64,000 nt of DNA from a virus: the IMG/VR virus record IMGVR_UViG_3300028392_001993, positions 32,001-96,000 of that record; one strand, given 5' to 3'. Positions 4,777 to 43,330 of this stretch are shown here, one piece after another; within the stretch, counting starts at the first letter, position 1, and every line of letters starts with the position of its first letter. Below the pieces are notes generated by a model that saw nothing but the letters and a program-made list of their open reading frames with translations, did not search any database and was not told the DNA's origin. A program made the position numbers and the translations under genes.

Positions 4777-5124
4777 ATGGAACTTAAAAAGCAGTCACGC
4801 AAAAAGCGCACCGATCGTACACACATTGTTTACTTCATCCAAATTGGACTAGAGTACTACATTGGTGTTACAGCAAAAACCCAACGCACAATAACAATGT
4901 CGTTGCGCTCACGCATCAACAAGCATATCTATCGCTCACGCACAGAAGACAAATCATGGCGCCTGTACGAAGCAATTCGTGGCGCTGGTGAGTCGGCTGT
5001 TAATTTTGCAATCATAGACATTGTGCGTGGCAAGACCCAAGCACACCAACTAGAGCGCGAACTAATACGAAAGTATACACCTGCTCTCAACACTGATGTG
5101 CGTACAAAAACGGTTGACCAATAA
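4777..5124 (+). CDS. GIY-YIG-like nuclease domain protein
   Basis: IVYFI...YYIGVT motif pair and distal E-R/E motif. Confidence 0.6.
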
Positions 5125-9127: not shown

Positions 9128-9361
9128 ATGAACAAATATATAGAAAAAATCCCACGCAGTTTTGCCAAGGTGCTGAGCTGGCGTATTATCATTATTGGTC
9201 AATACATTGGCATTGGGTATTTTACTACCGGTAGTCTTGCATTTGGTGTTGGCCTTGCTGGGGTCACCACTGTGGTAAACAGTTGCCTGTATTTTTTCCA
9301 CGAACGTGCTTGGAACCGGGCAGGATGGGGCAAAGATGCAGTCACTCCTGCTGTCGAATAA
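9128..9361 (+). CDS. DUF2061-like small membrane protein
   Basis: RSFAKVLSWR...YFFHERAWN motifs. Confidence 0.75.
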   Translation: MNKYIEKIPRSFAKVLSWRIIIIGQYIGIGYFTTGSLAFGVGLAGVTTVVNSCLYFFHERAWNRAGWGKDAVTPAVE

Positions 9362-10562
9362 AGATCGTTATGGTTACTATACTGTGGGCAAGTTCAAAAC
9401 CTACAGCAAACTAGAGGCCATAGAACACAGCGGAAAAGTTCACCTGCCGGTCAAGTGGAACTTCAACTGTGACACATTTGAAAAGTTTGACTGGACACAA
9501 GAACCTCCGGGTAGTCTAGACTTTTGGTATGCGGCTCGTGCTAGGCAAATAAGAGAAAAATACGATTATCTTGTGCTGTGGTATTCCGGCGGCGCAGATA
9601 GTCATAATGTTCTCATGAGCTTTGTAAAAAATAATATCTTCATTGACGAGATTGCACAATTTCATAACTTAGCCGGTGAAAAAGGCAACAAGCAATCCTG
9701 GGTCAATGAAGAAGTATTTGCGACTTCAATTCCTACTACTCAGTCCCTAATAGAAAACAATCCTGTATATCGCAACACAAAACACAGACTAGTAGACTTG
9801 TCAGAGTTAGAATTTGATCTACTAAAAATAGACGATAACAAGTGGGATTACTTTTACAAAGTCACAAGATTTCTTAGCCCCAATACTCTAGCGCGAAGTT
9901 ACAAAAGAGAACTTATCCCTGACTATCAGATCTTGATGGATCAAGGCAAAAGCGTTTGTTTTATACATGGCTCTGAAAAGCCCAAGGTAGAAAATCGAAA
10001 CAACAAATGGTACATGGTGTTCAACGACTGCTTGGACAATGTGGTAACCCCAAGAACGCAGATGTTAAATCGAGAGTGGGAACATGATGAATTATTTTAC
10101 TGGTCAGACGAACTGCCACAACTGGTTGCCAAACAAGCACATGTGATCAAAAAGTTCATGTCTCAACTTACTCCCGACAAAGCTGACAATGTGAATGTGT
10201 TTAGCGATCAACGCAGTAAAAAAATTCCCGATATTTCATACAGCAATATTGTAATTGATTCTGTTGAATACCGGCTTCTGCCCGACGGCTTACATCAACT
10301 GATCTATCCTGACTGGAATCCTAACTTTATTGTGTGCGGCAAAACCCCCAGTGCCGCATATAGCAATAGAGATACCTGGATGTTTGATAGTATTGCTCCT
10401 GATCTAGGACAACGTTATTATAACCGTGGGTTATTGCATCTTAGACAACTAGTGAAACGTGCCAATCCAGACTATTGGTTTGAATATCCATATGATCCTG
10501 CATCCGGTATTCCTTATAATGGTGGCATGCAACACATGTACAACCGATACTGTATAACTTAA
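9306..10562 (+). CDS. PP-loop (adenine nucleotide alpha-hydrolase superfamily) protein, paralogue 1
   Basis: YLVLWYSGGADS PP-loop; ELFYWS..P...KQAH block; true start may be the internal Met at 9333. Confidence 0.7.
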   Translation: MLGTGQDGAKMQSLLLSNKDRYGYYTVGKFKTYSKLEAIEHSGKVHLPVKWNFNCDTFEKFDWTQEPPGSLDFWYAARARQIREKYDYLVLWYSGGADSHNVLMSFVKNNIFIDEIAQFHNLAGEKGNKQSWVNEEVFATSIPTTQSLIENNPVYRNTKHRLVDLSELEFDLLKIDDNKWDYFYKVTRFLSPNTLARSYKRELIPDYQILMDQGKSVCFIHGSEKPKVENRNNKWYMVFNDCLDNVVTPRTQMLNREWEHDELFYWSDELPQLVAKQAHVIKKFMSQLTPDKADNVNVFSDQRSKKIPDISYSNIVIDSVEYRLLPDGLHQLIYPDWNPNFIVCGKTPSAAYSNRDTWMFDSIAPDLGQRYYNRGLLHLRQLVKRANPDYWFEYPYDPASGIPYNGGMQHMYNRYCIT

Positions 10563-11753
10563 ATGAGTTCAATAAAATTAGAAAACAATCCCAAACTAGG
10601 GTATTATAAAGTAGGCGACAAAACGTTCTACAGCAAGCCCGAGGCCTTGGTCGAAGCAACCAAAACCAATCAGTTTCCTGAGTGGAATTTTAGCCGCCAC
10701 ATCTTTGATGCAGTGAACTGGCTGGTAGAACCGCAGACTGATCTGCGTATGTTGTATCGCATACGTGCTCAACAACTGCGTGACCGGTATGACTGGATTA
10801 GAGTAGAAGCCAGCGGCGGCGGCGATTCAACCACTGCGGTGTTGAGTTTTCTCAACAATGGCATTCACCTGGATGAAGTTGTGTTTCGTTATCCCAAGAC
10901 CGGAGAGAAGGATGTACACAACGACCCATTCAATACCAAGTGTGAAAACACTCTAAGCGAATGGGAGTTTGCTGCCAAGCCCTTGCTACAATGGATTGCC
11001 ACTCACCACTCCACAGTAAAAATTACTGTGCATGACTATTCAGAAAACATGCTGGAAGGTGGGGCAGACGAAACTTGGGTGTTCAACAGCAAAGATTATT
11101 TTCAACCAGGACATGCATTCAAGCACGACAACATTGGCTTGATCGATCATCGTCGTGATGCAGATGCAGGCAAGAGCATTTGTGTGTTGTATGGCATCGA
11201 CAAACCCAAGATGTGTATCCGAGATGGCCGTTGGTTTGTGTACTTTATGGATCTACAGGCCAATCATTCTAATTCTGTAGTGTACGAATACACCAACATC
11301 ACCAACGAGTATTTTTACTGGACCCCGGACTTGCCTGAGATTATACACAAACAGGCACACATCATCAAGAACTGGTTTAGTCTTCCGCAGAATCAATTCT
11401 TACAATATCTAGTGCGTTGGCCCAATCACTCTATTGCTAATCGTACTGCATACGAAGCCATGGTCAAACCCTTGATCTATCCAGACTATGATCCTGCTAC
11501 ATTTCAAGTTGCCAAGCCTACCAACAGTTTTTACAACGAAATGGACTTTTGGTTCTACAAAAACTTTCAAGAAACTCGAGCGTTCCAAATCTGGGAAGCA
11601 GGTTTAAAACTGTTGGTGGACAACATTGATTTGAAATATTTTAACACTGAACTAGGACGTCCTGTGGGGTTCATAGGATTCCTCAGCCCATTCTACGATT
11701 TGGGTCCGGCTCAATATGTAAACACCGGGGTGAATAATTTTTCAAAATTCTAA
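10563..11753 (+). CDS. PP-loop protein, paralogue 2
   Basis: SGGGDS motif; EYFYWTPDLP...KQAH block. Confidence 0.7.
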   Translation: MSSIKLENNPKLGYYKVGDKTFYSKPEALVEATKTNQFPEWNFSRHIFDAVNWLVEPQTDLRMLYRIRAQQLRDRYDWIRVEASGGGDSTTAVLSFLNNGIHLDEVVFRYPKTGEKDVHNDPFNTKCENTLSEWEFAAKPLLQWIATHHSTVKITVHDYSENMLEGGADETWVFNSKDYFQPGHAFKHDNIGLIDHRRDADAGKSICVLYGIDKPKMCIRDGRWFVYFMDLQANHSNSVVYEYTNITNEYFYWTPDLPEIIHKQAHIIKNWFSLPQNQFLQYLVRWPNHSIANRTAYEAMVKPLIYPDYDPATFQVAKPTNSFYNEMDFWFYKNFQETRAFQIWEAGLKLLVDNIDLKYFNTELGRPVGFIGFLSPFYDLGPAQYVNTGVNNFSKF

Positions 11754-11918: not shown

Positions 11919-12836
11919 ATCATGTCAAAAATTCTAGCAACCTTGTTGGCTGCCATTGCCATCACCGCGGCTCAGGCTCGCGAAAACATCACAATCTTGT
12001 ATGCTTACAGCGCAGGTGATTCAGTAGCCAACTACCATCGAACCATTGCCAACGAAGCAAACAAGATCCAAGACCGATATAACTTTGTATTTGATGCCAA
12101 ACCCGGGGCCGGAGGTGCTATTGCATCCAACCAGGCACTGGGCACACCAAATACTATCTTGGCACACTCAACTGCGTTCTTTGTTCGTCCAGTTGTGTTT
12201 CCCAACGAAAGTTACGACATTGCTCGATTCCGGCAACAATACGTTCACTGTATGGCGCCCATGGCAGTGACCAGCAGTCGATATCGATCGCTGAAAGATG
12301 TTCCTACCACGGCTACCGTGGGTATCAGTGGCTTGGGAGTTACCACACACCTGGCTGCAATTGAACTCAAGAAAAAGTTTCCTGACCTGAACATTATCCC
12401 ATTCAAATCAACCACAGACTCAATGTTGAGCATGGTGGGTGGGCAAACTGACTTGCACATTGGTTTTATATCAGAAGCAGAGCAATGGAGCCGGGATAAT
12501 ACCAGCAGTGATCGCAAGGTCTCTGTGTTGGGTATTACTGGCAACAAAACAGTCAACGGTTATACTCCCCTGGCAAAACTGGGTCTTGATCCCAGTTTCG
12601 CTGACATGAATGTGGGGCATCACATGGTGCTTCCTGTCACAATTGATGATGCAAAACGCAAAGAGTTTTATGAAATTTTTGCCAAGGCCTCTCGAACAGA
12701 TGCAGTACGTGCGGCCTATGCTGTGGACTATTGCGAACCACAATCAGTCAAGTACGAAGACTTAAACAAGTTTTTTGTGTTTCATACTGAGTACTGGCGC
12801 AAATTGGCCAGTCAAGTTAAACTAGACAACAAGTAA
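11919..12836 (+). CDS. Tripartite tricarboxylate transporter substrate-binding protein (TctC/Bug family)
   Basis: Signal peptide; AKPGAGGAIA, SGLGVTTHLA, IPFKS motifs; GGAG RBS before 11919. Confidence 0.8.
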   Translation: MMSKILATLLAAIAITAAQARENITILYAYSAGDSVANYHRTIANEANKIQDRYNFVFDAKPGAGGAIASNQALGTPNTILAHSTAFFVRPVVFPNESYDIARFRQQYVHCMAPMAVTSSRYRSLKDVPTTATVGISGLGVTTHLAAIELKKKFPDLNIIPFKSTTDSMLSMVGGQTDLHIGFISEAEQWSRDNTSSDRKVSVLGITGNKTVNGYTPLAKLGLDPSFADMNVGHHMVLPVTIDDAKRKEFYEIFAKASRTDAVRAAYAVDYCEPQSVKYEDLNKFFVFHTEYWRKLASQVKLDNK

Positions 12837-12862
12837 ACACATCGGCAGATTCCCTGACTACT

Positions 12863-12870
12863 TATAAATA
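12863..12870 (+). promoter_or_regulatory. T4-type late promoter
   Basis: TATAAATA. Confidence 0.65.
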
Positions 12871-12889
12871 TAGCAGTTAGGAATTTGCT

Positions 12890-13069
12890 ATGAGCCGGAC
12901 ATTGATCTGGGTGTTGAGTTGGAGTGTGTTAGGACCAGTGCCTGAGTCGGGCGAACAAGCCAAGTTCAAAACTCAAGCAGAATGCGAACAGGCTCGAGTT
13001 CAAAAGCGTGAAGAATACCAGGCACAGAAAAAACAGATTGTGGCTAGTTGTCACCAGAGTACCAAATAG
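12890..13069 (+). CDS. 59-aa hypothetical protein, absent from the ORF track
   Basis: After late promoter and AGGA RBS; F.T.AEC motif. Confidence 0.6.
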   Translation: MSRTLIWVLSWSVLGPVPESGEQAKFKTQAECEQARVQKREEYQAQKKQIVASCHQSTK

Positions 13070-13070
13070 T

Positions 13071-13099
13071 TTGACATCAAATCAATTTTGTGGTATAAT
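13071..13099 (+). promoter_or_regulatory. Sigma70-type promoter of the tmRNA gene
   Basis: TTGACA-N17-TATAAT with overlapping TAAATA. Confidence 0.8.
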
Positions 13100-13105
13100 A
13101 AATAC

Positions 13106-13441
13106 TTGAACAGCGTAAACTGTTACTGAGAAAAGGATTCAAGACCCGGGGGCAGTGCCCGGCAGGTCCACCATAAGCATACTTAAATCTCTACAAAACC
13201 GAAAGGTTGGGATCAGGGCTGGTACACCGGATTACTCTAGGGAAACCTATAAGTGCGGATAGACCATAGTATGCTTTTGATGGGCCTGACACAGGATCGA
13301 TTGGGTCAAGAGTACAAGTAATGGCGCTCGGTAGGCGATGACCGTTAATCAAGCAAAACAAGTATCTGCAAACGATGATACATACCTCTTAGCCGCAAAC
13401 GCCTAAGAGCGAGGCAGTTATGCCTTGTAACCAAAAATAGC
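13106..13441 (+). ncRNA. ssrA: Circularly permuted (two-piece) tmRNA: acceptor piece ~13106-13173, intervening segment 13174-13281, coding piece from 13282, tag ORF 13368-13406 (ANDDTYLLAANA*)
   Basis: CAGGTCC-A-CCA pairs with downstream GGGCCTG including G3:U70; T-arm CCGGG-GGCAGTG-CCCGG; GCA resume codon with an AND...LAA tag. Confidence 0.9.
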
Positions 13442-13466
13442 AATAGGGACTTCGGTCCCTATTTTT
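13442..13466 (+). terminator. Intrinsic terminator after tmRNA
   Basis: AATAGGGAC-TTCG-GTCCCTATT-TTT. Confidence 0.85.
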
Positions 13467-14079
13467 ATGGGTATTGCCAAGTCCAGGAGCCATCTTGCTT
13501 ATAAAGTCGTGTTCTTCCTTTAACTTTAGCAGATAGTTTAGAGGCACCTTTTCTGCCATTTTCTGCCGCAGTTGGATTAGGCAATCCTTTATTCCACGGA
13601 GTCGCACCTTTATTTCTGGATACAGACGATGTATAATTTGAACCATTAAATTTTGCGGCACAGGATTGACTACACCAAGCCTTTTCTCTAATCGGGTGAT
13701 GACAAAACTCTATCTTACCAAATAAGTTAGAACATTGAATGCAGGTGTATTGTCGTGTCTCTTTTGGTCTAGTTTTAGTGCGTTTATTTTGAGCAGATAA
13801 CAATTTTGAATGCTCTATCCTTGCCTTCTCGTAATGTCTGTTCGAATACTTCTTTAATCTGCCCATTAGATTTACAGCATGCCATAATGTTCCGCCGTGT
13901 ATCTTCGCTAATAATATATGGGCTATATAATGCTCACGAGCAGTTAGATCAACCAAGTTAGAAGGTTCGTTAGTTCCTCCTAAACACTTTGGAATAATAT
14001 GGTGTTCTTCTTTGTAGCCAGTAGTAGTTCTAAGTTTGGCTCTTTCTATCAGCGATGTATAATGGTTTAAATAATTCAT
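13465..14079 (-). CDS. HNH homing endonuclease with C-terminal Zn-finger/NUMOD-like DNA-binding repeats
   Basis: EEHHIIPKCLGG.N..NLV.LT.REHYIAH motif; CSQSCAA; upstream CATAAATA on minus strand. Confidence 0.85.
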   Translation of the reverse strand: MNYLNHYTSLIERAKLRTTTGYKEEHHIIPKCLGGTNEPSNLVDLTAREHYIAHILLAKIHGGTLWHAVNLMGRLKKYSNRHYEKARIEHSKLLSAQNKRTKTRPKETRQYTCIQCSNLFGKIEFCHHPIREKAWCSQSCAAKFNGSNYTSSVSRNKGATPWNKGLPNPTAAENGRKGASKLSAKVKGRTRLYKQDGSWTWQYP

Positions 14080-14130
14080 AACTTTATTTATGCTTTCGTA
14101 GCCTAATATACCTCGTAACAGAAACCACCA

Positions 14131-14152
14131 AACCCGCTTCGGCGGGTTTTTT
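14131..14152 (+). terminator. Intrinsic terminator (identical core to 14527-14545)
   Basis: AACCCGC-TTCG-GCGGGTTTTTT. Confidence 0.85.
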
Positions 14153-14158
14153 AATTTG

Positions 14159-14166
14159 TATAAATA
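14159..14166 (+). promoter_or_regulatory. T4-type late promoter
   Basis: TATAAATA. Confidence 0.65.
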
Positions 14167-14186
14167 AATGATATTAGGAGTATAGC

Positions 14187-14510
14187 ATGAGCACCGATTT
14201 TTTAAAAAAATACATCGATATCATCAATGAAGCAGAACAACCACAAGTTCAACTTGATGAAGATGGTCCTTACAGCAAAAAGCAAATTAACTGGGTTATA
14301 AAATACAACCAGCATGACAAGTATGAGGGCAAGGGCGCAGTCTTTAATGTAGATTCCACTGCTAGAAAGGTACGTTGGAAACAACCTCTTAACTATGACG
14401 TAAAGGAATTTGAGAAGGTCGGCTTGGACGTATGGGACCGGAAATTGCGTCAAGCAGTCACTAACGCAGTCTTGGCCCAAATGCCCCCTGCCCCTGGGTA
14501 CGACAACTAA
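14187..14510 (+). CDS. Hypothetical late protein
   Basis: AGGAG RBS; N-terminal FLKKYIDIINEAE motif. Confidence 0.7.
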   Translation: MSTDFLKKYIDIINEAEQPQVQLDEDGPYSKKQINWVIKYNQHDKYEGKGAVFNVDSTARKVRWKQPLNYDVKEFEKVGLDVWDRKLRQAVTNAVLAQMPPAPGYDN

Positions 14511-14526
14511 TTTTCACAAACACCAG

Positions 14527-14550
14527 AACCCGCTTCGGCGGGTTTCTCTT
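14527..14550 (+). terminator. Intrinsic terminator
   Basis: AACCCGC-TTCG-GCGGGTTT. Confidence 0.8.
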
Positions 14551-14601
14551 GTCAACCCTTTCGAGGGCTAAGGCGTTGTATATGTATGTCAAGGAGACAT
14601 C

Positions 14602-14766
14602 ATGCAACATGCTATCAAATGTGACAATTGGGGAAAACCCGGCAAAAATGAAGTGGTGAGATTCATGCCTGTTAACTTGGCCAGGTTTAGAAACTGCCCA
14701 GACTGTGATCGTAAACGAATCACTGCTTGCAAAGATCCTGCTTGCAATCGAACCCGAAAGCCTTGA
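14602..14766 (+). CDS. 54-aa Cys-rich (CPDC...C...C) micro-protein, absent from the ORF track
   Basis: AAGGAG RBS; MQHAIKCDNWGK...NCPDCDRKRITACKDPACNRTRKP. Confidence 0.65.
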   Translation: MQHAIKCDNWGKPGKNEVVRFMPVNLARFRNCPDCDRKRITACKDPACNRTRKP

Positions 14767-14926
14767 CTCTTATACAATTCTCATATATAATACACTTATG
14801 AAACAAACAACTACAATCGTTACAATCGTTCGCTCAGAACATGAGTGGGATTGCCATTGGGGGCTTTGCCTGTAATACGAAAGTACTACCCTGCAAAGAC
14901 CCTCCACTTCGGAGGGTTTTCTTTTT
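14763..14926 (+). promoter_or_regulatory. Attenuator-like unit A: promoter, leaderless 25-aa leader ORF (14798-14875), antiterminator and terminator (14895-14926)
   Basis: TTGACT-N17-TATAAT; leader MKQTTTIVTIVRSEHEWDCHWGLCL; GGGGGCTTTGC (14859-14869) complementary to GCAAAGACCC; terminator GACCCTCC-ACTTC-GGAGGGTT followed by a U-tract. Confidence 0.7.
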
Positions 14927-14931
14927 AGTGC

Positions 14932-14960
14932 TAGACCATAAATTGAAACTCTGCTACAAT
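14932..14960 (+). promoter_or_regulatory. Second sigma70-type promoter upstream of the ncRNA/tRNA block
   Basis: TAGACC-N17-TACAAT with TG extension. Confidence 0.55.
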
Positions 14961-15048
14961 AGAACTTAACAAAGCAACAAAGTAGATCGATACTAGTTGT
15001 AACAGATCTTTAAAAATCGTATTTCATTTAGTCCTGGTAACAGGGACT

Positions 15049-15269
15049 ATATGAGAACACATTAGGGTTACCAGACCCGTTAGAGGCATTGGTAGAAGTG
15101 AATTGACACCGGCGGGTGTCCACTTGCTACCAGTCATGAAGCCGGCTCTCTACTGTAAAAAGTAGATCCAGAAAAGCGGCGGATCGTCTGGCAGTAATGA
15201 CCGTGGTGACTTGGTCTCGCAAGCCAAGCAGAACGAGATCCACAACGGTTCCCAAATGTTTTTTCATAT
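15049..15269 (+). ncRNA. Structured spacer RNA E1 (~220 nt), unknown family
   Basis: Closing helix ATATGAGAACACATT/AATGTTTTTTCATAT plus internal hairpins; abuts tRNA-Glu. Confidence 0.6.
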
Positions 15270-15345
15270 GGTGGGTTCATCTAGAGGCCTAGGATAGTGC
15301 CCTTTCACGGCATTCACACCGGTTCGAATCCGGTACCCACTACCA
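15270..15345 (+). tRNA. trnE-UUC: tRNA-Glu (UUC)
   Basis: Cloverleaf, GTGCC-CTTTCAC-GGCAT, CCA. Confidence 0.92.
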
Positions 15346-15782
15346 TACGAAAACACACTGGAGATAAGCAGGAACTTGTGGCCACGAGGTCGCCTCGTCC
15401 AGTGTGTTTTTATATGGTCACTATATAGAAATACATTGCCGAGGAGCGACGTCTTTACCATGGGCTCCGACCATAAAGAGAGGTAGTGTGTTTCTATATA
15501 GCAATCATATAGAAGTATTCTTGGCATAAGTCAAAGCGAGAGAAGAAGCCTAGTATCTGCAGATGCGAAAGTTTCAGTGGTGCAAGTCCCCTCCTAGGCC
15601 TGCTGTTGAGAGTGCTTCTATATGGTAGATGTTATAGTCAAGCATCGATAAGGTATCGTGTATGGACGCATACACTATTCGGGTCACAGCGGCCGGCGAC
15701 TGATCCTAATATAACTGCATCGGCTTTTGCACTCTTAGCGGAGGACGCATAAATTGGCATTCTCGGTGCTTGACTATGATAT
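15343..15782 (+). ncRNA. Tandem array of four stem-closed structured elements E2-E5 (15343-15417, 15421-15501, 15506-15624, 15629-15782)
   Basis: Each is closed by a 15-20 bp helix with related arm sequences and compensatory changes; interiors differ and contain hairpins. Confidence 0.65.
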
Positions 15783-15785
15783 TTT

Positions 15786-15860
15786 GGTCTGATAGTATAT
15801 CGGTTAGTATCCCACACTGTCACTGTGGGGAGACGGGTTCGATTCCCGTTCAGACCGCCA
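15786..15860 (+). tRNA. trnD-GUC: tRNA-Asp (GUC)
   Basis: Cloverleaf, CCACA-CTGTCAC-TGTGG, CCA. Confidence 0.92.
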
Positions 15861-15861
15861 A

Positions 15862-16178
15862 GTTTGAAGCCACACCGCCTGGGCACTTCTCTCAGTAATG
15901 AGACACTAGGTCCTGCAACCGTGGCTTCTCCCCAACGTTCCAGCGTCACTGGATAGTCTGACCCAGACGATGAGAAGTGTGATGACACACACGGGTGGTT
16001 CTGAAACGGCGAAGTTTCACTGAGCAATCAGCGGTCTAACCTAACCGGCGTTGGCAATACGAGAACGGTCCCTGTCGAGAAGCGGGTGGAAGGTGTGACG
16101 AAAATACTTGTGTGGCAGTCCATGACGAGCCTAACAAATTTTCTATCTCACTATAATTACCGCCGGGGGACGCAGAGC
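15862..16178 (+). ncRNA. Large ornate ncRNA candidate (~310 nt), family unassigned
   Basis: At least 7 hairpins (GNRA loops) and long-range complementarities in a GC-richer, non-coding tract. Confidence 0.6.
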
Positions 16179-16184
16179 ACTTGA

Positions 16185-16421
16185 TCAAGCAGTGTGCTGA
16201 GCATTTGCGTACTCAATCCATTCTGAATTGATCTTGCCAGCATCGCCATTGTGAGATGCAGGGTCTGCATCGGGGTTGGCATTTTTCCATTCATTGTAAA
16301 CTTTAGTGGCTTCGTGCCAGTTTTGTTCACGAGCGGCATCATCTTTTATCCACGCATCAAAATCAAGTTTACCGTCATCAAATGTCCAAACACGTTTGTT
16401 AAAATCTGTCCAAGTTGCCAT
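16185..16421 (-). CDS. 78-aa Trp/Asp/Asn-rich small protein
   Basis: AGGAG RBS on minus strand; directly downstream of a radical SAM gene. Confidence 0.7.
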   Translation of the reverse strand: MATWTDFNKRVWTFDDGKLDFDAWIKDDAAREQNWHEATKVYNEWKNANPDADPASHNGDAGKINSEWIEYANAQHTA

Positions 16422-16442
16422 AATATTTCTCCTGTGCAGTAT

Positions 16443-17645
16443 TTATCCGTTACGGGCAATCCAATCAGCCCAGAGCGCATGCCACTCTGGGAATACTTCA
16501 GCAAAACTTTCACTGCGGAGTTGGTCAAGTTTAGCATTATGATACCAAAACGATATTTGTTTTTCGTGGGTGTAATCCGGAGGAGTCCCCATCAAAAACT
16601 TAACAACTTCTCTAAATCGATCAATGGTTTTGAATTTTTCAGCCACTTTGAGTTTGAGTTCGTAAGGCATATATTGAATATTGTTGTGGGGTTCGTCTAA
16701 TACATAATTTTCAAAACTTATGGGCCATTTGCGTTTGAGCCCTTCGGCGTGTAGTTCATCCATGTCAAACACATTTAAAATAGTGGGACTGCAACGAATG
16801 TGTGTTTTTATGTTTGGATACGGGGCTACGTCTATTAGATACTTGTCAGTTACTGCTAGAACTTCGTCCCATTTGCTACCGTAACGTAAATAATCGTTTT
16901 TTGCCCCTACCCCATCAATACTGATAGCAAAATTAACCAGTTTGAATTCTTTGAAGTAGTCTACCAACTTAGGATCATAGATTGTGCCATTGGTATGTGT
17001 TCCGAGTATTTGATTCTTGGCGCCACCTGTACTGACTGCAGACTCTAGGATTTTGTAACTTAACGGAATCATCAATGGTTCGCCACCGTACAAGTCCCAA
17101 AATACCAGTTCTTTTTGCCACTCATCAAATGTGGCTTCAAGAGGTTTGTTATTTTTGTAGATAGTGGTATGAGGTTCCCATTTTTTTAACCAAATCTTAA
17201 ACGGTTTATCGTAGCCATCGTCCTTGTCAAATTCGTAGGCATCTTTGAACCACGATGTACTGGTAATTTCGTTGCAACTACGGCAGGCGTTGTTGCATTG
17301 TATGCCCGGTTTAATTATGATGACCCGGGGCTGATCTGGATGCGATTCAACATCAGCAAAGTCTAGATTTACTTGTTGCCGCATACTAACAACACCAATT
17401 TCCTCTTTCTGCCAACAACTATCACATTCTTTAATGCGTTCACCGTTTTCTAAATGTTGAACAAATTCTTGTCTATGCGGAGACTTCCACACCCGTTTAA
17501 GATCATCGTTAACATCAAACATATGATGATGTTCTGCTGTGGTATCTTTGTACCACCAGGTGCAAATCGGACAGGGACTGACCATGCCACTCATATCCAA
17601 CATAAGAGATAGTTCAGCAAGTTTACATTTGGTATCGTATTTCAT
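16443..17645 (-). CDS. Radical SAM protein with N-terminal Cys-rich (SPASM/twitch-like) domain
   Basis: CNNACRSC, GGEP, SIDG motifs; start moved to MKYDTKC after TAAATA. Confidence 0.85.
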   Translation of the reverse strand: MKYDTKCKLAELSLMLDMSGMVSPCPICTWWYKDTTAEHHHMFDVNDDLKRVWKSPHRQEFVQHLENGERIKECDSCWQKEEIGVVSMRQQVNLDFADVESHPDQPRVIIIKPGIQCNNACRSCNEITSTSWFKDAYEFDKDDGYDKPFKIWLKKWEPHTTIYKNNKPLEATFDEWQKELVFWDLYGGEPLMIPLSYKILESAVSTGGAKNQILGTHTNGTIYDPKLVDYFKEFKLVNFAISIDGVGAKNDYLRYGSKWDEVLAVTDKYLIDVAPYPNIKTHIRCSPTILNVFDMDELHAEGLKRKWPISFENYVLDEPHNNIQYMPYELKLKVAEKFKTIDRFREVVKFLMGTPPDYTHEKQISFWYHNAKLDQLRSESFAEVFPEWHALWADWIARNG

Positions 17646-17748
17646 AACTATATTTAACGACACAACCTTTTGGTAATTTAATTAAAGTCATCCCCCCAAG
17701 GATGAGAAGTGCTATGACAAAAATCATCTGGTAAATATATCACGCAAC

Positions 17749-19704
17749 ATGACAGATTCTAAAAAACAAATTTTCGAAATTAAAACAGTTTCTGACAACG
17801 AGCCTGTGGTAATTGAAAATTCAATGGGCGAAAATTCGCCACATTTGGCCATACTAGAAACCATTGGTACTCTGAGTCGCGGTAGGCCTCAAAAAAATCT
17901 AGATCGAATAATTATCAATCCAGTTACAAAACAAACACGAGTAGCAATGGTATTGCTTCCTTATTGGTCCATACACCACGCACCGTATAATATTGCACGT
18001 CTGGTAGGTTTGGCAAAGGCTGCAGGATTTAGCAGTTGTGCATTTGACGTCAATGTGGAAACTTACAATTTAACAGACAAAAAAGAATTATGGCATTCAT
18101 ACCTGTCTTGGAAATGGGAACAGCCGGAATATTACTATGCAGATATACATCCGTTCATTGAATCTACTCTGTTAGATCAAATTGACAAGATTGTAGAATT
18201 CAAGCCAGATGTCATTGGATTTAGTATATACTATTGTAATAATGAGACTGTGGCCTGGGCGGTGCCAAAGATCAGAGAAAAGTTACCTAATGTAAAAATA
18301 ATAGTGGGCGGATCTCAAGTGATCCAAGGAAAACTTAAATATGCAGAATTATTTGATCACGTGGTCAAAGGTGAAGGAGAACAAGTGTTCCTTGACATCC
18401 TAGAGAAAATTGAAAACAAAACACCTATCTCTGAACGCTTTCTAAGTTATCCTAAAGATCAACGCATTGATCTAGATTCCATGCCGTGGCCAGACTACGC
18501 AGACTTTGACTTGAGTTTGTATCAGTATGGTGCTGCCGTAGGGTCAGAAATCAGTCGAGGGTGTATAGCAAAATGCGAGTACTGTATTGAAACACAATTT
18601 TGGCGTTATCGCGGCAGAGTTGCTACCACAGTAGTTGATGAAATTGAATATCAGTACAAAACATTTGGCGTTAGAGCCATACACTTTGTTGACAGTTTGG
18701 TCAATGGTAATTTAAAAGAGTTAAGAGCATTTGCACTCGGAGTAGTAGCAAAGGGCATGACTGACCTTGCATGGGCCGGTTATGCTCGATCCGACGGTCG
18801 AATGGATCTTGCATATCTGCAGGATTTAAAAAATGGTGGGTGTCACTTTTTAAATTTTGGAGTAGAGTCGGGTAGCAACAAGACACTTGCATTGATGAAG
18901 AAAAATGTCACCCGAGAAGAGATGGAACAAAATTTTAAGGATCTCAAAACAGTAGGCATTAACGCTTACAGTAATTGGATTGTTGGATTTCCCGGAGAGG
19001 AAATCGCCGACGTTGCAGACTCGTTGATTTTTTTATGGCGCACCAGAGATACTGCCATACGTCATTATAGTTTAAACTTATGTTACAACGAGCCGGGCAC
19101 TCCATTGGGAACCAATCCTGACAAGTTTAATATCAGTAGCACTGAGTGGGCCGGCAAATGGATCACTAAAGATTATCGCAATACCAATATACACCGACTG
19201 ATTAGATATAAATCTTTGTTAATATTCACCGCTCACATGCGTCGACATTTGGTTCGACCACACGAAGGTTGGGGGCTTGGGGGTATGGAACGTTACAATT
19301 TTGAAAATCACTACACGTTTTTGTACGATCCGAAGAATGCAAGAAATGTTATAGACTACGACGATTTTGATTACAACATTATAAAAATCAATGTCAATCC
19401 CGTGGCCGATAGTATGGTTAACGAAATATGGCCTTTGCTGAGAACTTTGTATCTTGCCTGGGGTGCATACGAGTTTAGTGTACGTTTTGATCAAGACGAG
19501 GATTTTAAAGAATTTGGAAATCAATTTGTTTTTTCGCCAACTTTTGAAGAAAAATTTAAATTCGATGGCAACGTTTGGTTTAAGATTGATGCCGCTGGCA
19601 ATTGGCAGGCCAAATTAGATTATGTATTTGATTCTGCTATTCCCAACTTGAACTTTGATCTACATTTTGATGAGACGGGAAATTGGGAAAGAATTTCCCG
19701 ATAG
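17749..19704 (+). CDS. Cobalamin-binding radical SAM protein (class B methyltransferase-like)
   Basis: B12-binding region (DVIGFSIY, IIVGGSQ...V.KGEGE), SRGCIAKCEYC, FGVESGS, WIVGFPGE. Confidence 0.88.
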   Translation: MTDSKKQIFEIKTVSDNEPVVIENSMGENSPHLAILETIGTLSRGRPQKNLDRIIINPVTKQTRVAMVLLPYWSIHHAPYNIARLVGLAKAAGFSSCAFDVNVETYNLTDKKELWHSYLSWKWEQPEYYYADIHPFIESTLLDQIDKIVEFKPDVIGFSIYYCNNETVAWAVPKIREKLPNVKIIVGGSQVIQGKLKYAELFDHVVKGEGEQVFLDILEKIENKTPISERFLSYPKDQRIDLDSMPWPDYADFDLSLYQYGAAVGSEISRGCIAKCEYCIETQFWRYRGRVATTVVDEIEYQYKTFGVRAIHFVDSLVNGNLKELRAFALGVVAKGMTDLAWAGYARSDGRMDLAYLQDLKNGGCHFLNFGVESGSNKTLALMKKNVTREEMEQNFKDLKTVGINAYSNWIVGFPGEEIADVADSLIFLWRTRDTAIRHYSLNLCYNEPGTPLGTNPDKFNISSTEWAGKWITKDYRNTNIHRLIRYKSLLIFTAHMRRHLVRPHEGWGLGGMERYNFENHYTFLYDPKNARNVIDYDDFDYNIIKINVNPVADSMVNEIWPLLRTLYLAWGAYEFSVRFDQDEDFKEFGNQFVFSPTFEEKFKFDGNVWFKIDAAGNWQAKLDYVFDSAIPNLNFDLHFDETGNWERISR

Positions 19705-19727
19705 TTTTTACATATAAGTAAGAATAC

Positions 19728-19802
19728 CGCGGGGTGGAGAAGAGGTAACTCACTAGGCTCATAATCTAGAGATCGGCGGTTCGATTCCGTCTCCCGCAAC
19801 CA
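19728..19802 (+). tRNA. trnfM-CAU: Initiator-type tRNA-fMet (CAU), atypical anticodon stem
   Basis: CGCGGGG 5' end with C1:A72 mismatch; CTAGG-CTCATAA-TCTAG; CCA. Confidence 0.8.
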
Positions 19803-19814
19803 ATTCCCAAACTA

Positions 19815-21011
19815 ATGAAATTTTTTGAAGATACATCTGCCTCATCTGATGATGTAAAGCATCATGGTTTTTACATTGTCAATGGCAAAAATTATCTGTA
19901 TCGGTACAATGCACTGGTGGCGGCCACACAGGCCAAGTGCGAACTAGAGTGGCGCTTCAATGACGAAGTGTACAATAGCATAGATTGGTCTATACCACTA
20001 AACAAACCCATACTTGAAATTTATCGTGAGCGGGCACAACAACTGCGTGACAAATACGACTATCTAATTCTTTCTTATAGTGGCGGGTCTGACAGCGACA
20101 ACATTCTTCGTGCGTTTGTGGACAACAATATACATCTTGACGAAGTGTGGATTGACTGGCCACACGGCATAATGGACAAAACTGGATTTAAACCATCTTT
20201 TGATTTGAGTCATGAGAATCTTGCCAGCGAATGGCACTACACCATTGAACCTAAACTTCGAGAGTTGGCTAAAAATCATCCCGGGGTAAAAATACACATA
20301 TCCGATACCACAAGTCAGGGTATTGTAGATGACCTTGAGGACACTTCTGTTATTGTGGGATTTAGAACATCTTACCAAAACATAAGACGCATGAGGTATA
20401 TTTGCAATTATCAACAAAATATGTACGACAACGGTATTGATGTTGCACTTGTATCCGGTATAGAGAAACCATCAGTGACACTAACCCCCGATAACATGAT
20501 TGCGGCGGTGTTTCATGAGTTACCGACTGTTTTTAAAAACGATGTCACTCCGGATCGCCACACTGTGATAGAATATTTTTATTGGACACCTGAGTATCCG
20601 CATATTGTAGTAAACCAAGCGCACGAACTCATAAGATATTTTCAACAGCACGTGGAAGAATTTAAAAATTTAGAAGAGCACTTGAGAACTAATAAATATG
20701 CAATACACCGCTCGATGAGTCTAGATCGAGCTGTGAACATATCCTGTTATCCTACTTGGGATAACTGTTTTCAAACAGATAAATTCTTCTACACATTTGC
20801 CAGTAATCAGTTCAACAAATTGTTGATCCCGTTTATTCGCACAGAACAATTTGCTAAAACATACTATCATCGTTACTTCAATGATGCCAACATCATTGAT
20901 CCCAAACTGATTTTTCATCCGGTTTACAAGAATCGATCAAAAGTTTGTTACAAATATTATCCCGTTATGAGTTTACAAAAATTTTATCAAGGAGTCGTTA
21001 GAAATGTTTAA
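19815..21011 (+). CDS. PP-loop protein, paralogue 3
   Basis: YLILSYSGGSDS; EYFYWTPEYP...NQAH. Confidence 0.7.
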   Translation: MKFFEDTSASSDDVKHHGFYIVNGKNYLYRYNALVAATQAKCELEWRFNDEVYNSIDWSIPLNKPILEIYRERAQQLRDKYDYLILSYSGGSDSDNILRAFVDNNIHLDEVWIDWPHGIMDKTGFKPSFDLSHENLASEWHYTIEPKLRELAKNHPGVKIHISDTTSQGIVDDLEDTSVIVGFRTSYQNIRRMRYICNYQQNMYDNGIDVALVSGIEKPSVTLTPDNMIAAVFHELPTVFKNDVTPDRHTVIEYFYWTPEYPHIVVNQAHELIRYFQQHVEEFKNLEEHLRTNKYAIHRSMSLDRAVNISCYPTWDNCFQTDKFFYTFASNQFNKLLIPFIRTEQFAKTYYHRYFNDANIIDPKLIFHPVYKNRSKVCYKYYPVMSLQKFYQGVVRNV

Positions 21012-23955: not shown

Positions 23956-23992
23956 CGTTGTAAAAATACAACATCAAGTTTGCCAAAAACAA

Positions 23993-24202
23993 TTGACACA
24001 CAAAGGTAAATAAACTATAATTGATACTATGAAAACGACACTTTGTTTATTGCAACCCAAGAATATGTTCAGTCAGACATCTGCCTGGTCACACGCCTAT
24101 GGTCGCTTGACAAGCATTCTAGGAGACACAGGGTCTTAAATAGTACGCAATCGTATCTTATTCAAAGACCCTGGAACTAAAAACTCCGGGGTTTTTCTTT
24201 TT
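23993..24202 (+). promoter_or_regulatory. Attenuator-like unit B: promoter, leaderless 36-aa leader ORF (24029-24139), antiterminator and terminator (24165-24202)
   Basis: TTGACA-N17-TATAAT; leader MKTTLCLLQPKNMFSQTSAWSHAYGRLTSILGDTGS; CAGGGTCTT (24129-24137) is a perfect complement of AAGACCCTG (24165-24173); U-tract. Confidence 0.75.
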
Positions 24203-24215
24203 AAGGAGAACTTAG

Positions 24216-24263
24216 ATGACCGAAGAAGAATATTGGAAGTGGATTCAAGAGAACGTGCAATAA
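24216..24263 (+). CDS. 15-aa micro-ORF (MTEEEYWKWIQENVQ)
   Basis: AAGGAG RBS immediately after terminator B. Confidence 0.45.
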   Translation: MTEEEYWKWIQENVQ

Positions 24264-25152: not shown

Positions 25153-26187
25153 GTGCTAAAACTTAATTATTGTGAATTTTACATAACCAATGTATGCAAT
25201 TTGAACTGCTCGCGTTGCAATAGATTTAACAACTATGCGTTCTCCGGACATTATAAATGGAACGAGTATGCTGAGGTATACAAAAGTTGGTCAGAAAAAC
25301 TAGATGTTGGCAGAATTGGCATCTTGGGCGGTGAGCCTATGCTCAATCCCGAATTTGATGTATGGGTTGAAGAAATTGCTAAACTTTGGCCCAGGGCCTC
25401 CATATTGATTATAACCAATGGAACTCAATTTCACCGTTGGCCTATGTTGTATAAGTTGCTAGAAAAATATCAAGGCAGAGTCAGAATTGATATTAATCGC
25501 CATGATATAAATGCTGAGGCGGAAGTAGTTCGCAATGTTGAACAATTTTTTCCCGGAGATTACAAAAAGTTTTATGTCAATGACGGGTATTACACACAAG
25601 GCCCTGACCATGTTAAGCATTTTAATTTTGCAGATAACGGAATAAAATATGAGGTTTGGGAAGACCAAACATACAAACTTGCATGGAGAGATCACAATCA
25701 GATCTTTGTTAGATATGGTCTTGCAAATACATTTAGTAAGATACCAATAGAACGTTATGATGATCGAGTTAAATTAGTTTATTGGAGTGATCCAACCGCC
25801 GCTATATCTATTTGCGGTGGCAAAGAATCTCATCATTTTCTCAATGGTAAACTTTACAAATGTAATGTCTCTGCAATATTACCAAATTTTATCAAGCAAT
25901 TTGATGTTGCTATGACAGATCAACAAAAAGAGTTAATTGAATCTTATGAACCAGCAGAAATAACATGGAACAATGATAAATTAACAGAATTTGTTGAAGG
26001 GTTACGGCAGACTCGATGTATCGAGCAGTGTCGGTTATGTCCAGATGTGCTAGATGCAAAAGAGTTTCAAGCAGGTATTAAAAAGGTACATATAAAAAAA
26101 ATACAGAATTTGGAGAGTGAGAAGCATTGGCGACTTCAGGAGACTGTAAATCTTCCACCTTACGGTATACGGGGTTCGAATCCCTGA
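25153..26187 (+). CDS. Radical SAM protein; reading frame runs into tRNA-Tyr
   Basis: CNLNCSRC, LGGEP, ITNG, C-terminal C..C..C. Confidence 0.85.
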   Translation: MLKLNYCEFYITNVCNLNCSRCNRFNNYAFSGHYKWNEYAEVYKSWSEKLDVGRIGILGGEPMLNPEFDVWVEEIAKLWPRASILIITNGTQFHRWPMLYKLLEKYQGRVRIDINRHDINAEAEVVRNVEQFFPGDYKKFYVNDGYYTQGPDHVKHFNFADNGIKYEVWEDQTYKLAWRDHNQIFVRYGLANTFSKIPIERYDDRVKLVYWSDPTAAISICGGKESHHFLNGKLYKCNVSAILPNFIKQFDVAMTDQQKELIESYEPAEITWNNDKLTEFVEGLRQTRCIEQCRLCPDVLDAKEFQAGIKKVHIKKIQNLESEKHWRLQETVNLPPYGIRGSNP

Positions 26188-26205: not shown

Positions 26206-26234
26206 TTGACACAACCGCACGTTAACTATATAAT
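26206..26234 (+). promoter_or_regulatory. Sigma70-type promoter
   Basis: TTGACA-N17-TATAAT. Confidence 0.75.
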
Positions 26235-34949: not shown

Positions 34950-35183
34950 ATGAAGTTAGAAATCAATGAAATACTACAGTGGTCCGGAGCAGTGTTTATC
35001 ATTGCCGGTCACAGTCTCAACGCCGTAGGACCTGCGGCATACCCTTACAACATTCTTGCATTTTTCCTGGGCACAATCTTGTTCATGGGTTGGAGCATCC
35101 GTGTTGCAAATCGACCACAGTTGATGGTGAACATTGTAGCACTAGGCATTGGAATCACAGGGCTGGCGAAAGCATTCGGTTGA
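34950..35183 (+). CDS. Small multi-TM membrane protein
   Basis: Three hydrophobic segments. Confidence 0.7.
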   Translation: MKLEINEILQWSGAVFIIAGHSLNAVGPAAYPYNILAFFLGTILFMGWSIRVANRPQLMVNIVALGIGITGLAKAFG

Positions 35184-43003: not shown

Positions 43004-43330
43004 ATGGCGATAACACACAATGAACAACCAGAACATTGGCAGCCTGCAATGACCAAAATCATTGATGGGCAACCAGTACGTTTCCGTGACGTATGCGTAC
43101 ACGAAATACGCATGGGCGATGTAGAAGATCCAGATCTATTTGTAGCCGAACCAATGTGGAAGTGGCAAGAATCAGATGCTGGTAAATTCATTATGAAAAC
43201 TGCTGTGGACAAGCCTTACTGGACTCGCGGCATGGATCCGCACAGTTATGGACACATGTATCGAATTGTGGCCAGACTCAGCGAACAAAATGAAACATTC
43301 TGGCGACTCAAATGGGGAAATAATAAATGA
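43004..43330 (+). CDS. Hypothetical protein
   Basis: After TTGACA-N18-TACAAT; MGDVEDPDL motif. Confidence 0.65.
   Translation: MAITHNEQPEHWQPAMTKIIDGQPVRFRDVCVHEIRMGDVEDPDLFVAEPMWKWQESDAGKFIMKTAVDKPYWTRGMDPHSYGHMYRIVARLSEQNETFWRLKWGNNK

Follow-up and report, generated by a model that had tools for sequence, protein, structure and literature searches.

A candidate leaderless leader-peptide attenuator ahead of tRNA and structured RNA genes in a giant phage

The leader-peptide attenuators of enterobacteria (trpL, hisL, thrL, ilvL and pheL) control amino-acid operons. T-boxes bind uncharged tRNA through a specifier codon and an acceptor-pairing bulge; they use no ribosome, span about 200-300 nt, and control synthetase and amino-acid genes. 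The purpose and control of phage tRNA genes have been debated for decades. The element discussed here, module A, is a self-contained sequence of about 165 nt with sigma-70-type signals, located ahead of tRNA and structured RNA genes in the virus record IMGVR_UViG_3300028392_001993. The stretch analyzed (the window, 64,000 nt) comprises bases 32001-96000 of this 178-kb contig, which is estimated to be about half complete, and so the window belongs to a giant phage. Module A is probably a transcription attenuator of the ribosome-mediated, leader-peptide kind; its leader open reading frame (ORF) is predicted to be leaderless, and the module would act on the transcripts of a promoter called P1. 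Its anatomy, conservation, frame maintenance, competing pairings and geometry were computed, while its physiological signal is something that we infer.

The closest described systems are bacterial. In mycobacteria, stalling of translation on an upstream ORF is thought to cause antitermination at whiB7, which encodes a bacterial transcription factor; the coding sequence of this Ala-codon-enriched ORF sets the shortages that are sensed, and the peptide varies between species while the mechanism is kept (PMC10274678). Also in mycobacteria, leaderless polycysteine short ORFs are Cys-responsive attenuators in which ribosome pausing remodels the downstream RNA (10.1101/834739). An attenuator-derived small RNA, rnTrpL, is described for Sinorhizobium meliloti (PMC6614838), and recent work connects the tRNAs of phages with evasion of host anticodon nucleases (PMC10264068). 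Attenuation control of phage tRNA genes is not described in the full-text literature searched, although subscription journals lie mostly outside its coverage and absence is therefore unproven. Leader-peptide attenuation itself is known; what is probably new here, judging from sequence, is a leaderless phage version placed before tRNA and structured RNA genes.

A terminator and its competing antiterminator

The initial annotation of this stretch had proposed a promoter, an ORF with an ATG 6 nt past the promoter, hairpins, a terminator and a second promoter (P2), and all of these were found at the positions given in Table 1. P1 matches the consensus at 11 of 12 positions, and transcription from it is predicted to begin with the A of the ATG at 14798. 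A 25-codon open frame is by itself unremarkable against chance; the antiterminator described below is not, and the whole unit is kept in 29 distinct sequence variants. Relatives come from freshwater metagenomes, including contigs of 330 and 349 kb, and were collected with three queries: the neighbouring 54-amino-acid gene, a motif within the ORF, and an invariant 25-mer of P2. The search returned 52 loci with 41 distinct sequences upstream of P2; module A is present in 29 of the 41 and absent from 12. Because its sequence served as a query, the occurrence of P2 in every locus is partly by construction, and because all A-type modules were recovered through flanking sequence, the ORF motif or P2, their occurrence in other contexts is little covered. 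Three paralogous designs were distinguished: A, B (found elsewhere in the window by a promoter scan) and C (found in relatives), with 29 A, 8 B and 9 C variants and 45 distinct complete modules overall.

A sigma-70-type promoter, a small hairpin and a terminator are common to all 45 complete modules, and in each of them the predicted transcript begins at an ATG. Their ORFs run from 25 to 48 codons and the open frame is missing in none; the distance from the -10 to the ATG is 6 nt in type A, 7 nt in B and 9 nt in C, and the ORF ends 0-17 nt past the strand complementary to the terminator 5' arm in every A, B and C module. Within type A, both P1 hexamers are kept in 29 of 29 variants and the 6-nt gap between the -10 and the ATG is invariant. 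The initial annotation had suggested looking for conservation in related phages, and both the leader ORF and the antiterminator pairing proved to be conserved. The pairing is maintained through wobble and compensatory changes, and the 29 A-type variants and the two paralogous types all retain the ORF, with its first codon at the predicted transcript start and its last codons beside the switching strand.

The terminator combines a G+C-rich 10-bp stem with a U-tract and has a predicted energy of -15.4 kcal/mol; among 32 A and B sequences all cells of the stem are paired and two pairs covary. As first proposed from the window alone, the last codons of the ORF are complementary to the terminator 5' arm, and the predicted antiterminator helix comprises 11 bp with one bulged A. 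The nascent transcript was folded from its start to just before the terminator 3' arm, and in each of the 45 modules the minimum-energy structure contains the antiterminator, for which the end of the ORF invariably supplies one strand. For module A of the window, adding the terminator 5' arm to the upstream RNA is worth -10.4 kcal/mol, compared with -2.3 +/- 2.0 for dinucleotide shuffles, none of 200 of which reach this value. In relatives the antiterminator is worth up to -17.5 kcal/mol, against -2 to -5 for shuffles (0-1 of 200 reach the real value).

Comparative pairing points the same way. In the combined A and B alignment, 80.9% of antiterminator cells are paired, versus 27-60% when the partner is slid along; these pair counts cover A and B only, because MAFFT placed the type-C switching strand out of register, and type C was read by eye. 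Two pairs score as unpaired in this fixed-register count because the main A group has an extra G that displaces the register by one position; this G bulges an A, and 11 bp are still kept. One antiterminator pair changes from U-A to C-G via U.G (28, 3 and 1 sequences), and where the terminator stem has G-C in place of C-G, the antiterminator 5' strand is altered to match. This covariation is supportive of the antiterminator but not decisive. RNAalifold also suggested an anti-antiterminator, formed between codons 4-7 and the switching strand, which was set aside as weak: its covariation term is only -1.1 kcal/mol over 9 scattered pairs, and the pairing occurs in no nascent minimum-energy fold of the 45 modules.

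Could the switch be real but flipped by something other than a ribosome? An RNA-binding protein of phage or host, a small ligand, or a tRNA bound in the manner of a T-box might do so, with the ORF incidental. The bistable RNA is well supported and leader ribosomes are only predicted, as such a switch would have it. Without translation, however, there would be no explanation for the position of the start codon at the 5' end of the predicted transcript, for the in-frame indels described below, or for the fixed relation between stop codon and switching strand. Moreover, a search at E up to 1 gave no Rfam match for module A, whether to T-boxes, known riboswitches or any other family, and by our own reading the switching strand has no conserved tRNA-acceptor-pairing motif across the module types. 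A switch of this kind is highly improbable.

Table 1. Features of module A, of the genes around it, and of related elements in the window
Feature	Position	Strand	Details
Upstream neighbour gene, 54 amino acids	14602-14766		
Promoter P1	14763-14791	+	-35 TTGACT 14763-14768; 17-nt spacer; -10 TATAAT 14786-14791
Leaderless leader ORF (predicted)	14798-14875	+	25 codons 14798-14872 (ATG 14798-14800), then TAA 14873-14875
C/A-rich 5' segment of leader, codons 1-8	14798-14822	+	predicted unstructured
Hairpin 1, within ORF	14823-14853	+	predicted folds; inner stem partly backed by pairing-preserving changes
Candidate control codons Glu14, His15, Glu16, Trp17, Asp18	14837-14851	+	from peptide lists of variants
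Antiterminator 5' strand, made by last ORF codons	14859-14869	+	from folding and pair counts; pairs with 14893-14904
Small GAAA-loop hairpin enclosing stop codon	14872-14889	+	between the two antiterminator strands
Antiterminator 3' strand	14893-14904	+	overlaps terminator 5' arm
Intrinsic terminator	14896-14926	+	stem-loop 14896-14920 (10-bp stem, 5-nt loop); U-tract to 14926
Promoter P2	14932-14960	+	-35 TAGACC; TG-extended -10 TACAAT
Structured non-coding RNA E1	14961-15269	+	between P2 and tRNA-Glu; part of the predicted read-through unit
tRNA-Glu (UUC)	15270-15345	+	behind P2 in all relatives examined
tRNA-Asp (GUC)	15786-15860	+	from tRNA gene search
Module B	23993-24202	+	consensus promoter; ATG 7 nt past -10; 36-codon ORF; small hairpin; terminator
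ORFs with leaderless layout	4777-5124, 9128-9361, 34950-35183, 43004-43330		GIY-YIG-like, DUF2061, DUF6552, one unknown

Probable translation of the leader and the signal it may read

Indels give indirect support for reading of the leader ORF by ribosomes. They were counted on nucleotide alignments built without codon information. Seven of the eight indels within the ORF are multiples of three (lengths 9 and 1 in type A; 3, 6 and 3 in B; 9, 6 and 6 in C), and the sole out-of-frame case, a 1-nt change five codons ahead of the stop, is accommodated by another stop codon 4 nt further downstream. The untranslated part, from stop codon to terminator end, has at least eight indels of 1-2 nt, none of them a multiple of three. 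The contrast between the ORF and the untranslated part gives p of about 7e-4 in a hand-calculated Fisher's exact test. Without reading of the frame, such confinement of in-frame indels to the ORF would be difficult to account for.

The peptide, on the other hand, appears to be of little account. Minimal changes at the three codon positions number 23/29/29 in type A, 16/16/20 in B and 15/17/32 in C, and purifying selection on the peptide, which was considered for types A and B, is not supported, since the changes in these two types have no third-position bias. The RNA motif that switches is read in three different frames in type A, in the variant shared by loci L020 and L043, and in type B; in L020 and L043 a frameshift has replaced the C-terminus of the peptide while the RNA motif is retained. 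Conservation of the frame together with freedom of the peptide sequence is what a sensory leader ORF would be expected to show, and it seems that the act of translation matters rather than its product. A precursor of a ribosomally synthesized and post-translationally modified peptide had been considered on account of the nearby radical S-adenosylmethionine (radical-SAM) genes; this idea was dropped, because the C-terminal residues are frameshifted in some variants with the RNA motif kept.

A rival idea is that module A is simply a self-contained small gene, producing either a trans-acting small RNA of about 130 nt or the mRNA for a 25-residue peptide, with the complementarity a feature of stability or folding. 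The element has its own promoter and a strong terminator, while the downstream block has its own promoter in P2, and small RNAs typically have the arrangement seen here, an unstructured C/A-rich 5' segment with hairpins and a U-tail behind it. A Ser codon that changes from TCA to AGC while Ser-Glu-x-Glu-x-Asp is retained even hints at selection on the peptide, but the peptide is otherwise poorly constrained, as the lack of third-position bias and the frameshifted C-terminus of the L020/L043 variant attest. A pure small RNA, for its part, would not keep its indels in frame. Nor would a stable small RNA need a pairing that destroys its own terminator, yet all 45 modules have such a pairing far above shuffles, and module B, with the same design, precedes genes that have no strong promoter of their own. 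On balance a small gene of this sort is an unlikely account of module A. Attenuator RNAs can also act in trans, as is reported for rnTrpL (PMC6614838), so that a small-RNA role can coexist with attenuation.

The window also contains precedents for starting translation at the very 5' end of a transcript. Four other promoters of the same type have an ATG 5-6 nt past the -10, each beginning an ORF of 77-115 codons (Table 1). Among the encoded proteins, a Pfam match to DUF2061 is far above the cut-off (E 2e-15), matches to DUF6552 (26.9 versus 27 bits) and GIY-YIG (18.2 versus 22.6) fall below it, and the fourth ORF has no match. Leaderless mRNAs thus seem to be a regular feature of the window phage, and the same layout at other ORFs makes leaderless initiation credible for module A. 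On our reading the leader is probably translated by ribosomes, and its translation probably coupled to transcription. Codons 1-8 are unpaired both in the nascent-transcript fold and in the centroid fold. The first third of the leader is rich in Thr and Ile, for which there is a simpler explanation than sensing: an unstructured C/A-rich 5' end is needed on a leaderless mRNA. A longer, 56-codon ORF in the same frame, with a GTG start (14705-14875), was disregarded; its 5' part overlaps the promoter and the end of the neighbour gene, and no ribosome-binding site was seen before it.

The initial annotation had reasoned that a ribosome reaching the stop would mask the antiterminator strand, and predicted folds of the leader in which a segment the size of a ribosome was kept unpaired reproduce this logic. 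All 11 bp of the antiterminator survive in the nascent RNA as long as the A site is no further than codon 17; 8 bp are left at codon 18, 5 bp at codon 19, and none at codon 20 or beyond. The proposed attenuator would then operate as follows. The P1 transcript would start at or within one base of the AUG, and 70S ribosomes would start on this leaderless mRNA. If no ribosome occupied the last third of the ORF as the terminator 5' arm emerged, that arm would pair with the last ORF codons, and the antiterminator would pre-empt the terminator, allowing read-through past P2 into E1, tRNA-Glu, further RNA cassettes and tRNA-Asp. A ribosome at codon 20 or later, or on the stop, would cover the 5' strand and the small hairpin; the terminator would form, and a leader RNA of roughly 130 nt would be released. 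P1 output into the block would rise when leader translation is slow, stalled or absent, and would come on top of constitutive output from P2.

Two further hairpins belong to this leader. Hairpin 1 is a possible pause or synchronising hairpin that a translating ribosome would melt; by our own reading of the alignment, relatives with different local sequence have a different hairpin at its site. The small hairpin that surrounds the stop codon, whose GAAA loop was already recognized in the initial annotation, has counterparts at the stop-codon site in types A, B and C, with differing sequences.

Which shortage might such a leader report? The codons for Glu, His, Glu, Trp and Asp lie just ahead of the antiterminator strand, and the downstream tRNA genes are those for Glu and Asp, as the initial annotation had pointed out. 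Glu14 is kept in 28 of 29 A variants, Glu16 likewise in 28 of 29, and Asp18 in all 29, with positions 15 and 17 varying; one of the Glu codons changes synonymously, and the preceding Ser switches codon family. These three residues occupy the last A-site positions at which a stall would favour read-through, and every relative examined has tRNA-Glu and tRNA-Asp genes behind module A. Glu codons are absent from all 8 variants of leader B, while leader C, which heads an array including both tRNAs, has codons for Glu and for Asp. Such a distribution is compatible with codon-specific sensing. The conserved Glu-x-Glu-x-Asp at the last permissive stall sites makes it plausible that the leader responds to how much charged tRNA-Glu and tRNA-Asp there is, although what it senses may be translation in general.

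A feedback loop can be imagined on this basis, in which the phage supplements tRNA-Glu and tRNA-Asp only in times of shortage, for example after cleavage of host tRNAs or host shut-off, with module B gating the rest of the tRNA array and, elsewhere, a lone C-type module heading the whole array. This larger scheme is tentative, and we hold it to be rather doubtful as it stands. A translation-sensing switch ahead of phage tRNA and non-coding RNA blocks would mean that a virus gauges decoding capacity in real time and tunes its own tRNA output. Leader-peptide attenuation would then no longer be confined to amino-acid metabolism, but would also serve the machinery of translation and be used by viruses. 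The leaderless design would also offer a natural system for studying how 70S initiation at a 5' AUG is coupled to RNA polymerase.

P2, the downstream block and the paralogous modules

The second promoter, which the initial annotation had flagged as able to bypass the terminator, is indeed present and can do so. P2 begins 6 nt past the terminator end and precedes a structured RNA and tRNA-Glu in 41 of 41 distinct loci recovered by its sequence. Because of this bypass the block is independent of module A, and read-through from P1 only adds a conditional component. The proposal that the phage switches on its tRNA and non-coding RNA operon through this attenuator is thus only partly supported: module A is not the sole gate, since P2 drives the block. 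The -35 of P2 is TAGACC in 29 of 29 module-A variants and TTGAC(C/T) in all 12 loci without the module (L015, L016, L021, L022, L025, L032, L033, L039, L042, L044, L048 and L052), and P2 may have been weakened where module A supplies read-through.

The difference at the P2 -35 is also relevant to the view that module A is mainly an insulator, which ends upstream transcripts and shields P2, with P1 and the ORF the decaying duplicate of a B- or C-type attenuator. Types A, B and C are evident paralogues, the upstream 54-amino-acid gene has no terminator of its own before 14896, and P2 makes module A dispensable for expression of the block. A decaying duplicate, however, would be expected to have lost its promoter, start, frame or antiterminator in some variants, and none of the 29 has lost any of them; in addition, a P2 -35 that differs with the presence of module A suggests that the two are co-adapted. 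We accordingly give very little credence to a mainly insulating role.

Module B makes a stronger case for functional read-through than does module A. Its ORF stop abuts the switching strand, and between its promoter at 23993 and position 26206 no promoter-like site scoring above 9/12 was found. This interval holds an ORF of 15 codons, led by a Shine-Dalgarno sequence, right behind the B terminator, followed by a 216-amino-acid ORF, tRNA-Trp and a radical-SAM gene. Read-through of module B must therefore occur. A C-type module heads the tRNA region in genomes without A.

Several facts nevertheless weigh against the attenuator proposed for module A. The antiterminator has few true double changes (2 pairs and 9 cells), since its strands are at the same time constrained by the terminator and the ORF, and conservation of these strands is partly explained by the peptide and the terminator stem. 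Many of the 29 variants are near-identical, and the independent type-A lineages number about five. In the window phage the antiterminator, at -10.4 kcal/mol, is weaker than the terminator at -15.4, and the full-length minimum-energy fold contains the terminator; since the terminator is the more stable at equilibrium, the decision of the switch must be kinetic. The trp attenuator has the same asymmetry, with an antiterminator weaker than its terminator. As to the signal, Glu and Asp account for only 3 of the 25 leader codons, tRNAs for the other residues lie elsewhere, and the bases of the Glu and Asp codons also form hairpin 1, again in few independent lineages. Finally, P2 heads the RNA and tRNA block in the 12 of 41 distinct loci that lack module A, and the regulatory gain from the module could be small.

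The region behind P2 is rich in structure, with a z-score of -6.1 for 14798-15270. A second structured non-coding RNA lies at 15346-15785, between tRNA-Glu and tRNA-Asp; neither it nor E1 (14961-15269) has a match in Rfam. For about 320 nt past tRNA-Asp (15861-16184) there is no plus-strand ORF of at least 50 codons, and no recognisable terminator before the convergent minus-strand genes. The segment may be further structured RNA, or else the operon's actual 3' end.

Some observations on the same modules stand apart from the argument. The 15-codon ORF behind module B (24216-24263) has a strong Shine-Dalgarno sequence directly after the terminator and starts with Met-Thr and three Glu codons; it is kept, with conservative substitutions, behind the C-type modules of relatives, there ahead of P2, and may encode a micro-protein or serve as another sensory ORF. 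A short palindrome, GTTGTA-spacer-TACAAC, precedes the -35 of the module-B promoter (at 23957-23972) and, in seven of the loci without module A (L016, L021, L022, L033, L042, L044 and L052), that of P2, in each case at a distance of about 20-35 nt. It could be the operator of a regulator or an RNA processing hairpin.

The window as a whole has 23 tRNA genes and a permuted, two-piece transfer-messenger RNA (tmRNA) gene at 13071-13463, which scores 108 bits against the Rfam family tmRNA_permuted and has a perfect consensus promoter (TTGACA, 17 nt, TATAAT at 13071-13099). ARAGORN missed this tmRNA; it called that of the relative L018, with a tag ending in ALAA. An HNH-type endonuclease ORF on the minus strand (13465-14079) adjoins the tmRNA gene. 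Three paralogous proteins of about 400 residues have, by eye, the SGG-x-DS motif of PP-loop ATPases, and several ORFs have, also by eye, the CxxxCxxC motif typical of radical-SAM enzymes; ORFs of these two types are interleaved with tRNA genes at 9306-11753, 16443-19704, 19815-21011 and 25153-26187. A near-identity search against annotated phage genomes gave no match, and a distant search of the same genomes gave a single unrelated 180-nt stretch near a homing-endonuclease gene and no close annotated relative.

Comparison with known attenuators

When positions 12000-20000 were scanned with Rfam cmscan at E up to 1, nothing was found at 14763-15269, leader families included; the matches in this region were the tmRNA, the tRNAs, and sub-threshold Tymo_tRNA-like and Plastid-ycf2 hits that overlap tRNA genes. 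Module A shares with T-boxes a decision between terminator and antiterminator that reports on tRNA supply, which for module A is a candidate function. Its leader is only about 130 nt, however, and it has no Rfam match and no visible conserved acceptor-pairing motif. With rnTrpL it would share a terminated leader transcript that forms a separate small RNA ending in a terminator hairpin. Such an RNA could have an additional function in trans, but this is a possibility only, and neither a target nor a trans function can be inferred for module A.

The likeness to trpL, hisL, thrL, ilvL and pheL is more extensive. Module A has a short leader ORF (here predicted to be translated) and a terminator opposed to a mutually exclusive antiterminator, which would be covered by a ribosome at the end of the ORF; candidate control codons lie just upstream of the antiterminator strand, and the antiterminator is the weaker helix, with a kinetic decision. 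The differences are also clear. Module A faces viral tRNA and non-coding RNA genes rather than biosynthetic enzymes, its leader begins at the 5' end of the transcript without a Shine-Dalgarno sequence, its control codons are few and interspersed (Glu-x-Glu-x-Asp) instead of forming a run, a second promoter lies directly behind it, and it matches no Rfam leader family. Unlike trp, it has no convincing hairpin of the 1:2 type, and for this reason an untranslated leader is predicted to allow read-through by default, contrary to trp superattenuation.

The two mycobacterial systems are closest in other respects. Module A resembles whiB7 in its logic, although its output would be phage tRNAs and structured RNAs and there is no sequence relationship between them. 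With the polycysteine ORFs it would share a leaderless, sensory short ORF that heads an operon and on which codon-specific pausing remodels the RNA (10.1101/834739). Those ORFs carry a run of Cys codons and control translation by unmasking a ribosome-binding site, whereas module A, in another host and context, would control the termination of transcription.

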